A stretch of 13,864 nt of DNA from an uncultured Eubacteriales bacterium (GCA_964631135.1 CAZVVZ010000008.1:4810-18673), one strand, 5' to 3'. Shown: positions 2,296-11,981, counted from the stretch's first letter. The notes: generated from the letters alone by a model not told the origin. A program made the numbers and translations.

Positions 2296-3729
2296 ATGAA
2301 AAAATTTGATACCAAAGTTCAGCATTTAAAATATAAGGTTTTAAGGGAAGTCATTAAAAAGGCAGAAAGCAATGACCTGGAAAATGTTTATAGAGACGTC
2401 CCTATTACTGTTGTACCGGGTCCTAAAGCAAGTATGAGATGCTGTATATATAAAGAAAGAGCTATTGTTCAGGAAAGAATTAAGATGGCACTTGGCGGTA
2501 ATAAAGATAACCCTAATGTTGTTGAAGTTATAGATATTGCTTGCGATGAGTGCCCGATTGGAGGTATGCTTGTAACAGAAGCTTGCCGTGGATGCATTGT
2601 AAATAGGTGTACAGAGGTTTGCCCTAAAGGTGCTATAAATATTGTTGATAAAAAGGCAGTAGTGGATAAGGACAAATGTATTGAGTGTGGATTATGCACT
2701 AAAGCTTGTCCGTATTCTGCTATTATTCATCAGCAGCGTCCTTGCATAAAGAGTTGCAAGGTTAAGGCTATTAGCATGGGAGAAGATAAAAAAGCTGAAA
2801 TTGATAACGATAAATGTATTGAATGCGGTGCTTGTGTTTATCAATGCCCTTTTGGTGCTATTGTAGATAAGTCTTTAATTATGGAAGTGCTTTCTATATT
2901 AAAAAATTCAGATAACAATAAGAATTATAATGTTTATGCCGTTATTGCGCCGTCTATTGTTAGCCAGTTTAAATATGCAAAGATTGAACAGGTTATAACC
3001 GGTATAAAGATGCTTGGTTTCCATCAAGTTGTTGAGGCGGCTCTTGGTGCGGACATTACTTTATATCATGAAGCTAATGAACTTAAAGAAAAGCATATTA
3101 TGACGACTTCGTGCTGTCCGTCGTTTGTTATGTTTGTGGAAAAGAACTTTCCTGAACTTACGAAGTATATTTCAAGCTCTGTTTCGCCTATGGTAGAAAC
3201 CGCAAAACTTATAAAAAGCTCTGATCCTACGGCTAAAGTTATATTCATTGGACCTTGCAGTAGTAAGAAGATGGAATATAGACTAGAAAAAACCGACGGA
3301 GCAATAGACAGTGTTTTATCTTTTGAAGAATTGCAAGCATTTTTAGATGCTCGGGATATTGATATAACAGTATTAGAAGATTCTGCTTTAGACAATGCAT
3401 CATATTACGGTAGAATTTTTGCTAAATCCGGCGGTATTGCTAAAGGCATAAAAGATGTTGGAGAAGAAATGGGGATTGATGTTAAGCCTATTGCTATGAG
3501 CGGAATTGATGAATGCAGAGTAAATTTACTCAAGTTAAAAGCTAATAAAGCTACGGAAAACTTTTTTGAAGGAATGGCTTGTGATGGCGGATGCTTAAAT
3601 GGGGCTTTGTGTTTAAGCCATGGCCCGAAAAATGCAGTTGATGTAGATAAATATGGTGAGGAAGCTAAAGAAAAAACCATAGATAATTCCGTTAATTTAT
3701 ATAAGTTAAGTCAGAATAAAGGGATGTAA
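2296..3729 (+). CDS. [FeFe]-hydrogenase, short monomeric type (likely group B-like), with N-terminal 4Fe-4S ferredoxin-type clusters
   Basis: 477-aa ORF. Two CxxCxxCxxxCP ferredoxin motifs (CIECGLCTKACP, CIECGACVYQCP) plus further Cys clusters. H-cluster motifs are TTSCCPSF (L1), GPCSSKKME (L2) and EGMACDGGCLNG (L3). Starts 2 nt after the upstream stop. Confidence 0.85.
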   Translation: MKKFDTKVQHLKYKVLREVIKKAESNDLENVYRDVPITVVPGPKASMRCCIYKERAIVQERIKMALGGNKDNPNVVEVIDIACDECPIGGMLVTEACRGCIVNRCTEVCPKGAINIVDKKAVVDKDKCIECGLCTKACPYSAIIHQQRPCIKSCKVKAISMGEDKKAEIDNDKCIECGACVYQCPFGAIVDKSLIMEVLSILKNSDNNKNYNVYAVIAPSIVSQFKYAKIEQVITGIKMLGFHQVVEAALGADITLYHEANELKEKHIMTTSCCPSFVMFVEKNFPELTKYISSSVSPMVETAKLIKSSDPTAKVIFIGPCSSKKMEYRLEKTDGAIDSVLSFEELQAFLDARDIDITVLEDSALDNASYYGRIFAKSGGIAKGIKDVGEEMGIDVKPIAMSGIDECRVNLLKLKANKATENFFEGMACDGGCLNGALCLSHGPKNAVDVDKYGEEAKEKTIDNSVNLYKLSQNKGM

Positions 3730-3733
3730 AAAA

Positions 3734-3806
3734 ATATATGCTGTTTTATCGAGACTCAAGATTTGCAACGAAAAACTTTAAAAAGCGATAGTTGTACGAA
3801 AGTCAA
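3734..3806 (+). repeat. Decayed/truncated copy C of the same element (left arm tip plus left half of the core; no right arm)
   Basis: TGTTTTATCGAGACTCAAGATTTGCAACGAAAAACTTTAAAAA (3742-3784) matches copy A 7841-7883 at 39 of 43 positions. TACGAAAGTC (3795-3804) resembles the core TACGGGAAGTC. No complementary right arm follows. Confidence 0.6.
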
Positions 3807-3816
3807 GGTGATTGAT

Positions 3817-7782: not shown

Positions 7783-7798
7783 TTAAATTATTAAAGAG

Positions 7799-7963
7799 AA
7801 ATCAGTTACTGCTCAAAGCACTATACGAAAATAACATATATGTTTTATCGGAACTCAGGATTTGCGACGAAAAACTTTAAAAAATACGGGAAGTCTGCAA
7901 ATATTCCTTCCTTTTAAAACATATATGTTATTTTCGTATAGTAGTTTGAGCAGTAACTGATTT
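7799..7963 (+). repeat. Long-hairpin intergenic element, full copy A (conserved asymmetric core flanked by 47 bp of arm pairing)
   Basis: 7799-7817 pairs with 7945-7963 (19 bp). After a 2x2 mismatch, 7820-7847 pairs with 7915-7942 (28 bp). The core at 7848-7912 recurs at 11851-11920 and partly at 3741-3806. Strand given is the core orientation, not proven transcription. Confidence 0.85.
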
Positions 7964-8003
7964 ATGATTAAAAACCTATTACCGGTAATCATCAAAGCTT
8001 TTA

Positions 8004-11224: not shown

Positions 11225-11243
11225 AAAATTTTCTGCTAAAAAA

Positions 11244-11335
11244 GGGGCTGTAAAAAACTCCATCTAGATAGCAAATACCTCATACATTTAAATATATGAG
11301 GTATTTACTATTTAGTGGAGTCCTTTTACAGCTCC
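11244..11335. terminator. 92-nt imperfect palindrome between convergent rnc and veg; probable bidirectional intrinsic terminator, and possibly a separate repeat family
   Basis: The arms pair as GGGGCTGTAAAA/TTTTACAGCTCC (11 of 12), ACTCCA/TGGAGT, CTAGATAG/CTATTTAG (7 of 8) and AAATACCTCATA/TATGAGGTATTT (12 bp). The loop is about 10 nt. A6 run at 11238-11243 gives a U-tract for the - strand; TTAATTTTT follows on the + strand. Confidence 0.6.
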
Positions 11336-11351
11336 TTAATTTTTACAGCCC

Positions 11352-11811: not shown

Positions 11812-11981
11812 AGCTACTGGTCAGAGTACATGAAATAAGATACATGTTTCATCGGAACTCAGGATTTGCAACGAAAGACTTTAAAAAAATACGGGAAGTC
11901 TTTCGGCAAATATTCGTTCCTTTTAAAACATGTATCTTATTTCATGTACTCTGACCAGTGACATATACTCTGACCAGTAAC
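11812..11981 (+). repeat. Long-hairpin intergenic element, full copy B (same core, diverged but still complementary arms, duplicated right terminus)
   Basis: Perfect 34-bp stem 11816-11849/11926-11959. Inner pairings are GGAAC/GTTCC, ATTTGC/GCAAAT and CGAAAGACTT/AAGTCTTTCG, closing a 14-nt loop. The right terminus TACTCTGACCAGT occurs twice (11947-11959 and 11966-11978). Confidence 0.85.

Follow-up and report, generated by a model that had tools for sequence, protein, structure and literature searches.

An interspersed palindromic repeat family with an invertible centre in an uncultured Clostridia lineage

This study concerns a stretch of 13,864 nucleotides (nt) from an uncultured Eubacteriales bacterium (GCA_964631135.1, CAZVVZ010000008.1:4810-18673), hereafter referred to as the window, and a 165-nt hairpin that lies within it at 7799-7963 (copy A). 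Copy A belongs to a family of non-coding, interspersed palindromic repeats of restricted distribution, in which two long arms evolve in concert around a conserved centre, and the centre of copy A is found in opposite orientations in near-identical genomes. The family is best explained, with a probability of roughly 0.6, as a lineage-specific selfish repeat of the kind represented by miniature transposable elements with inverted repeats (MITEs), REPINs, and Correia elements, the centre of which flips via recombination or template switching. Bacterial palindromic interspersed repeats are already known as a class; what is new here is the apparent restriction to one species, the presence of a second subfamily, a centre that flips, and arms that evolve in concert at the level of DNA.

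Anatomy and copies of the family

Copy A had been described in the initial annotation of the window as a near-perfect hairpin with 47 of 49 arm positions paired, and this description is borne out by an inverted-repeat search and by folding. The arms (7799-7847 and 7915-7963) pair over 19 bp and, beyond a 2x2 mismatch, over a further 28 bp; the centre between them measures 67 nt, and the RNA fold has an energy of -78.3 kcal/mol, as compared with -26.7 +/- 4.0 for dinucleotide shuffles (z = -13.0; 0 of 200 shuffles equal). The left arm, delimited as a terminal inverted repeat by the inverted-repeat search, the fold, and the pairing string, carries the family terminus GTTACT at 7805, while the right arm bears a 2-nt difference between strains (GTAG or GTGC) behind the 2x2 mismatch. 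The centre (7848-7914) is a quasi-palindromic core with asymmetric internal loops and is matched by a covariance model at 7834-7928 on the plus strand (95.8 bits). A weaker, locus-specific extension carries the palindrome to an outer limit of 7788-7974, i.e., to 60-nt arms (7788-7847 and 7915-7974) that are 90% complementary and 67 nt apart.

Two further copies are present in the window, where a 25-nt core motif has three occurrences against 0.00 expected by chance. Copy B (11816-11959; fold z = -12.9) has perfect 34-bp arms at 11816-11849 and 11926-11959, the latter delimited by inverted-repeat search and fold, and a centre at 11850-11925 on the plus strand with an intact 10-bp apical stem (CGAAAGACTT/AAGTCTTTCG); the covariance model matches it at 11838-11937 on the plus strand with 114.9 bits. 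Alignment agrees with the initial annotation that the core recurs in copy B with three substitutions plus a 1-nt and a 4-nt indel. Copy C (3730-3785, plus strand) is a half copy that retains the inner left arm and the 5' half of the centre and is without the right half; it was recovered as part of a direct-repeat family with 77% identity and as an nhmmer match at 3729-3784. A third, partial copy had indeed been announced, although at 3741-3806, which is not where it lies.

The subfamily-1 unit measures ~145-165 bp and consists of 34-49-bp terminal inverted repeats, which start with GTTACT and end with AGTAAC, around a 67-76-nt quasi-palindromic centre. Its arms are homologous among copies (GTTACTrrTCrrAG..., with the complement at the opposite end), and the G+C content of the elements is ~0.31-0.34. 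From the outside inwards, the centre is composed of the stem GGAAC/GTTCC, a TCAGG versus ATTC internal loop, the stem ATTTGC/GCAAAT, an AA bulge, the stem CGAAAGACTT/AAGTCTTTCG, from which 4 nt are missing in copy A, and, at the apex, a loop of 12-14 nt. The core had previously been regarded as non-palindromic and asymmetric; the asymmetric loops are real, but the core is for the most part an imperfect continuation of the hairpin with three further stems.

The search was extended to same-species DNA, namely metagenome contigs from ENA and Logan that share 99.4-99.9% identity with the window, were obtained from exact-protein look-ups, and total ~65 kb (the sampled DNA; contigs carry handles such as L001); for the exact U32 peptidase of the window, the look-up returned no record. 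Copy D (L001 16509-16667, minus strand) has 44-bp perfect arms, whereas the right arm of copy E (L001 19274-19420) has decayed. Copy F (L002 11927-12042) is without a right arm and stands at the edge of a strain-specific 3-kb island that is present in L002 only; a degenerate copy (L002 11765-11884) lies beside it at the left edge of the island. Arms-only remnants are found at L019 997-1035 and 1045-1100. Finally, a copy at L019 4448-4673 defines a second subfamily: its 94-nt centre is homologous to that of subfamily 1, and its 66-nt arms, 97% complementary to each other, are unrelated to those of subfamily 1. The sampled DNA thus contains four full copies plus truncated and remnant ones, dispersed over varying contexts, i.e., between convergent genes (A), between divergent promoters (B and E), and just after stop codons (C and D). 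All units are non-coding and well below the ~500 bp that bounds prokaryotic MITEs (145-165 bp in subfamily 1 and 226 bp in subfamily 2), and subfamily 1 has shared terminal inverted repeats (GTTACTrrTC and its complement) as expected of MITEs, which the unrelated arms of subfamily 2 do not share.

These copies support the initial annotation in its proposal of an unclassified multi-copy non-coding family, and its remark that no transposase, integrase, or reverse transcriptase is nearby extends, as judged from Pfam domains, to the sampled DNA as a whole. Its reservations that there might be no further copies, that a described family might match, and that strains might not differ are answered by the extra copies, by the lack of a match to any described family, and by a strain-specific copy together with the orientation polymorphism. 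A single orientation for all copies, which it had also reported, holds inside the window and fails outside, where copy D occupies the opposite strand and one further strain carries copy A in inverted form.

Inversion of the centre and concerted evolution of the arms

On contig ERZ27279220:k141_281157 (L002/L019), the flanking DNA of which is 99.4% identical to the window, the flanks and arms of copy A are as in the window and exactly the inter-arm segment is reverse-complemented. The covariance model reports copy A with 95.8 bits on the minus strand in L002/L019 and on the plus strand elsewhere; since the wrong strand gives no reported match for copy A, and gives 34-42 bits for copies B, D, and E, the orientation of copy A is unambiguous. 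It is inverted in one of five independent assemblies, the plus orientation being found in the window, L001, L011, L113, and L014 (a contig that begins inside the element). The whole 165-nt unit of L113 is a perfect reverse complement of that of L002. L113, which comes from another sample, carries the same adjacent flank variants as L002 (a 3-nt insertion and a G) and yet has the opposite orientation, and the flip is therefore young relative to the neighbouring substitutions.

A second locus shows the same behaviour: the subfamily-2 centre has the plus orientation in both L019 and L114, whereas ERZ27279216:k141_185909 (L115), which breaks off within the centre, carries its reverse complement, and this inversion is probably genuine as well. 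Three strains present three combinations, namely A+/S2-, A-/S2+, and A+/S2+ (S2 being the subfamily-2 copy). Copy B is in the plus orientation in all four assemblies, and flipping was observed at the copies whose arms are longest (49-66 bp). A segment bounded by inverted repeats and found in both orientations, as in an inverton, is thus observed; simple consensus scans of copies A, B, and C for sigma-70-type promoters and intrinsic terminators never placed the centres above shuffle expectation.

The arms of each copy have changed together. Among four copies, 8 of 55 arm pairs are altered on both sides. For the centre, the numbers are 11 of 30 pairs changed on both sides and 0 of 30 on one side only, a result matched by 0 of 500 shuffles, and 95% of the cells in the centre alignment are paired, versus 33-52% when the partner is slid. 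Arm pairing is strictly of the Watson-Crick type (34/34 in copy B, 44/44 in copy D, and 47/49 in copy A), with essentially no G-T pairs. Pairing of this type, without G-U, argues for a constraint at the DNA rather than the RNA level and points to arm complementarity that arises by copying between arms in DNA, not by selection on an RNA helix. The right arm of copy A reads GTAG in the window, L001, and L014, and reads the perfectly complementary GTGC in L002, L011, L012, L013, and L113; the difference is a block change, in which the mismatch is corrected as a unit. The palindromes of copies A and D run 6 and 3 nt, respectively, past the family terminus into local sequence, and the centre is more conserved than the outer arms.

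Distribution and genomic surroundings

The Rfam check suggested in the initial annotation was carried out with Rfam 15 at permissive thresholds, and no family reached its gathering score; the best match, MIR8742, scored 45.5 bits on copy B against a threshold of 130, and nothing matched copy A. Membership of any Rfam RNA family was rejected accordingly, and plant and viral microRNA models were dropped as generic long-hairpin matches far under threshold. Exact-pattern scans with conserved core words returned 0 matches in the GTDB species representatives and 0 in IMG/VR, blastn gave no match in plasmids and phages, and nhmmer and the covariance model found none over 1.3 Mb around plsX in 80 GTDB species. 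The nearest GTDB representative, a 'Clostridia bacterium' metagenome-assembled genome, has 58% PlsX identity. Three JGI metagenome matches were set aside as chance, because they consist of a 19-mer only and lie on contigs of 58-60% G+C. The comparison with relatives, likewise proposed at the outset, shows that the family is absent (nhmmer and covariance model) both from relatives with 85-86% PlsX identity and the same gene order and from Era relatives with ~83% DNA identity. The sample name of one relative points to a bovine metagenome. As the family is absent from relatives and from the scanned collections, it looks restricted to one uncultured Clostridia species of gut or rumen, which is the pattern of recent within-lineage expansion; a high copy number is an extrapolation from the ~65 kb sampled. 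The host DNA is low in G+C (33%), carries spoIIE-, veg-, and yqzL-type genes, and appears to be from an uncultured member of the Clostridia.

Copy A lies in the intergenic region between the convergent U32 peptidase and zinc-ribbon genes, and 3' of it stand TTTATGATT on the plus strand and TTTCTCTTTAATAATTT on the minus strand; a relative has an ordinary bidirectional terminator at the corresponding site. A scan for intrinsic terminators, limited to 3-8-nt loops, detected none at copy A. Because it is the only hairpin between its two convergent genes, copy A would probably act as their bidirectional terminator or 3' stem-loop. Copy B is located between the divergent veg and rpsB genes, inside a gap flanked by promoter-like sites that read away from it, and is probably transcribed from neither. 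Its right-arm terminus is tandemly doubled at 11943-11981, where CATGTACTCTGACCAGTGA is followed by CATATACTCTGACCAGTAAC (11962-11981, as read from the sequence and also recovered by the inverted-repeat search), and the family terminus AGTAAC ends the second unit only. Copy C begins directly after a stop codon, and the called TTG start (3763) of the transglycosylase gene falls inside it; an in-frame GTG at 3808, preceded by the Shine-Dalgarno sequence AAGGTGA and giving the N-terminus MKILRRMFLAILLF..., is likelier to be the true start. A small protein or toxin encoded by the element was also considered and rejected: open reading frames from an inner-arm ATG lose frame between copies, because these differ by 1-nt and 4-nt indels, and are without a ribosome-binding site.

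Outside the window, the island next to copy F (L002 11752-14800, between tsf and frr) encodes an 869-aa Peptidase_C39_2 protein, is absent from the window's strain and L001, and has as its boundaries a direct repeat (ACAAAT[C/T]AAGTAA, 12/13), of which the left-hand unit forms the end of tsf. Upstream of era (L019 997-1228, ~9 kb left of the window), gene callers stretch Era across an arms-only remnant to 365 aa; in relatives, Era has 297 aa and starts at an ATG after GGAGG. The subfamily-2 palindrome is flanked by subfamily-1-like fragments, of a right arm on its left side (L019 4400-4447) and of a left arm on its right side (L019 4674-4710), which suggests nested or adjacent insertions.

The genes of the window encode [FeFe]-hydrogenase-like proteins, a transglycosylase, YebC, a U32 peptidase, a zinc-ribbon/F5-8 protein (minus strand), PlsX, ACP, RNase III, Veg (minus strand), S2, and EF-Ts, and a scan of the window for transfer RNA and transfer-messenger RNA genes found none. 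A 44-nt direct repeat with 80% identity in a hydrogenase-like gene (2647-2690 and 2785-2828) matches the duplication of the 4Fe-4S ferredoxin-type domains and is unremarkable. Between rnc and veg, which are convergent, lies another long palindrome (11242-11337) that has no relation to the family; its arms measure 48 nt, are 77% complementary, and have zero spacer between them. Its outer stem resembles the usual terminator of this genome (GGGGCTGTAAAA...TTTTACAGCTCC), it is single-copy in the sampled DNA, and sub-threshold microRNA and ohsC Rfam matches arose from it; a relative with 85% PlsX identity has just a 29-nt spacer at the corresponding rnc/veg site. In a relative with 86% PlsX identity, yet another unrelated palindrome is located upstream of rpsB (L108 4999-5130; 57-nt arms, 89% complementary, 18-nt loop), and long palindromes upstream of rpsB may be a recurring feature of the wider lineage.

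Origin of the family and relation to known systems

According to the selfish-repeat explanation, the units would have been spread within one species by a trans-acting enzyme encoded elsewhere in the genome, as we infer from their dispersal, shared termini, and lineage restriction, from the one strain-specific copy, and from the decayed copies. A single-strand (HUH/RAYT-like) route would be consistent with units that are hairpin throughout and lack target-site duplications, and is offered as a lead only. After insertion, recombination or replication template switching would take place between the long, closely spaced arms. Such arm-to-arm exchange could keep the arms of each copy Watson-Crick complementary while the copies diverge from one another, correct mismatches in blocks, flip the centre, and extend the palindrome into local flanking sequence, and central or one-sided deletions would leave half copies and copies reduced to their arms. 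These changes agree with what is established for inverted repeats at close spacing, in which template switching from arm to arm homogenises and expands the arms and inverts the spacer (PMC8604942, PMC13100816, PMC5941160). Any effect on the host is probably incidental.

Several observations weigh against this explanation. No target-site duplication was found at the four or five intact ends available, a small sample: the flanks are TCA/TGA for copy A, AAC/GTT for copy D, TAG/CAA for copy B, and CAT/CCT for the small remnant, with no direct repeats among them and with some inverted ones that merely lengthen the palindrome. The called genes of the sampled DNA encode no transposase, integrase, reverse transcriptase, or recombinase domain (Pfam), no parent insertion sequence (IS), longer parent element, or RAYT was met in walking along its contigs, and it contains no pair of filled and empty sites between near-identical strains; the sample itself consists of few contigs from one metagenome cohort. 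The outer arms of subfamily 2 are single-copy, locus-specific sequence in the sampled DNA, and either an expansion of the arms or an insertion into a palindrome already in place would have to account for them. Lastly, the CTCAGGATT versus ATATTCG loops and the AA bulge are identical in both subfamilies, while all surrounding stems have changed. A passive palindrome is expected to symmetrise, and some sequence-specific constraint therefore lies outside the selfish-repeat explanation; the conserved asymmetric loops could be a protein-binding site or the recognition site of a mobilising enzyme.

The very stable folds, the covarying stems, and the conserved loops would also be expected of an element that acts as RNA, i.e., of structured non-coding RNAs or of cis-acting hairpins in messenger RNAs that are selected for their structure and serve RNase III processing, stabilisation, or termination. 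Copies A, C, and D lie directly 3' of stop codons, where transcription is expected, copy A as the sole hairpin at a site where a relative has a bidirectional terminator, and Correia elements are bound and cut by RNase III (PMC2649163). Such an origin is nonetheless unlikely, as the pairing is unlike that of RNA-selected helices (Watson-Crick only, no G-U, 0 of 30 core pairs one-sided, arms 34/34 and 44/44), arms of 34-66 bp go far beyond the need of termination or stabilisation, the orientation relative to neighbouring genes is not fixed and flips, consensus scans found no promoter of the copies' own, and Rfam has no match. Divergent genes flank copies B and E, the promoter-like sites around B read away from it, and copies whose spacers are not transcribed could not be processed by RNase III. 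Occurrence in intergenic DNA without transcription, complementarity at the DNA level, and loop sequences conserved across subfamilies would suit a DNA site recruited by the host, e.g., for a nucleoid protein, replication, or segregation, that forms a cruciform or single-strand hairpin and was amplified because it is useful rather than selfish. To our knowledge, however, no convincing fit by eye exists to parS, the IHF consensus, sigma-54 -24/-12 elements, attC, or K-turn motifs. The confinement to a single species and the absence from 85%-identity relatives with the same gene order, the many broken copies, and the lack of regular spacing or strand bias render a recruited site very unlikely.

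The inversions allow for a further reading, in which the copies are programmed switches, i.e., a multi-copy family of hairpin invertons whose asymmetric centre or inner arms are read by a dedicated site-specific recombinase, with phase variation of termination or antisense transcription as the outcome. Small invertible terminator switches are known in Clostridioides difficile. In favour of this reading, a sample of no more than three to five strains shows both orientations of copy A and probably also of the subfamily-2 copy, and these loci flip independently of each other. Inner arms and asymmetric loops have been conserved from one subfamily to the other, and a flip changes the arm/centre junction hexamer, which is TTTAAA at one end and GATAAA at the opposite end. 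Programmed switching is nevertheless distinctly unlikely: promoter and terminator motifs in the centres are not above chance, a recombinase gene was not found in the sampled DNA, copies adjoin housekeeping genes in every intergenic context (divergent promoters included), many copies are decayed or truncated, and it is the loci with the longest arms (49-66 bp) that have flipped, as homology-driven recombination or template switching predicts. Equally doubtful is its genome-wide form, in which a dedicated recombinase, or an enzyme acting on single-strand DNA, uses the asymmetric centre (CTCAGGATT versus ATATTCG, the AA bulge, and the apical hairpin) as its recognition module and both disperses and flips the units. 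If this were true, dozens to hundreds of intergenic hairpins could toggle termination or antisense read-through beside core genes, a multi-locus hairpin-based phase variation unlike known promoter invertons. The inversion, as opposed to the element, might also be an artefact of assembly or library preparation, as long palindromes give strand-switch chimeras in polymerase chain reactions and tangles in de Bruijn graphs, Logan contigs (k = 31) do break at the element arms, and a fold-back chimera could give the pattern of L115, which ends inside the subfamily-2 centre. For copy A, a single strand switch would put the same flank at both ends. The k = 141 contig instead crosses the true left flank, arm, inverted centre, arm, and true right flank, a path that needs read k-mers linking unique flank, 49-60-nt arm, and centre on both sides, and four other assemblies from the same pipeline show the opposite orientation, so that an artefact is most improbable.

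The palindromic repeat family is an undescribed one from an uncultured Clostridia lineage and offers a clear-cut case, from nature, of the evolution of long inverted repeats at close spacing in the chromosome of a bacterium. It has practical consequences too: assemblies with short k are interrupted at each copy, start codons are miscalled on account of the elements (in era and in the transglycosylase gene), and read-based callers would label them 'invertons' though a regulatory role may be lacking. If the asymmetric loops turned out to be recognised by an enzyme, the family would be a pointer to a new system of mobilisation or inversion.

Among known systems, integron attC sites were rejected, as the termini GTTACTG/CAGTAAC do not fit RYYYAAC...GTTRRRY and the neighbours are housekeeping genes rather than cassettes. 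Invertons, such as those of Bacteroides capsule promoters and of C. difficile cwpV and flgB, likewise consist of a short segment bounded by inverted repeats and found in both orientations in close genomes. Here, in contrast, the segment measures only 65-94 bp, no promoter is detectable in it, the inverted repeats are of unusual length for a segment of this size, no invertase is nearby, and the family is dense, scattered among housekeeping genes, and decaying. Quasi-palindrome template switching (PMC8604942, PMC13100816, PMC5941160) accounts for the block correction of mismatches, the Watson-Crick arms, the locus-specific extensions, and the flip of the centre; it is a process rather than a family and leaves the same centre at many loci and the conservation of the loops unexplained. 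Generic MITEs (ERIC, RUP, BOX, bcr1) are, like the present family, small, non-coding, intergenic, and lineage-restricted, with terminal inverted repeats and truncated copies. They differ in that no target-site duplication or cognate IS was found in the sampled DNA and in that the arms evolve in concert per locus, whereas MITE repeats, being read by a transposase, are usually conserved among copies.

REPINs, i.e., REP doublets mobilised by RAYT, share with the family the long, non-coding, intergenic hairpins, the abundance, and the confinement to a lineage. We know of no target-site duplication described for REPINs. The term is missing from PMC3116915, where compensatory hairpin changes are reported to be common. 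In REPINs, the arms (the REP sequences) are most conserved and the spacer varies; in this family, the centre is most conserved and the outer arms vary or, in subfamily 2, are unrelated. REPs are also GC-rich sequences of 20-40 bp with a GTAG or CGTC head, unlike the AT-rich arms found here, the consensus of which has neither head, and no RAYT gene was found in the sampled DNA; membership of the REPIN/RAYT system was rejected on the base composition of the arms, the lack of either head, and the greater conservation of the centre.

As for the Correia elements (CREE, or Correia MITEs), these belong to Neisseria rather than Clostridia, and no sequence that we know from them was recognised in the present family. 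The arms here measure 34-49 bp as compared with ~26 bp and differ among copies yet remain self-complementary, and neither a TA target duplication nor an outward promoter or IHF site was found. Correia elements are made of inverted repeats around a conserved core and are bound by RNase III (PMC2649163), and a passage in PMC10969869, citing Elbeyioglu 2017, reports their inversion between strains. The two have in common that their units are intergenic and non-coding, measure ~100-160 bp, and carry a conserved core between terminal inverted repeats, that copies are numerous within a single lineage, and that the unit forms one long hairpin and, if transcribed, would be a possible substrate of RNase III.

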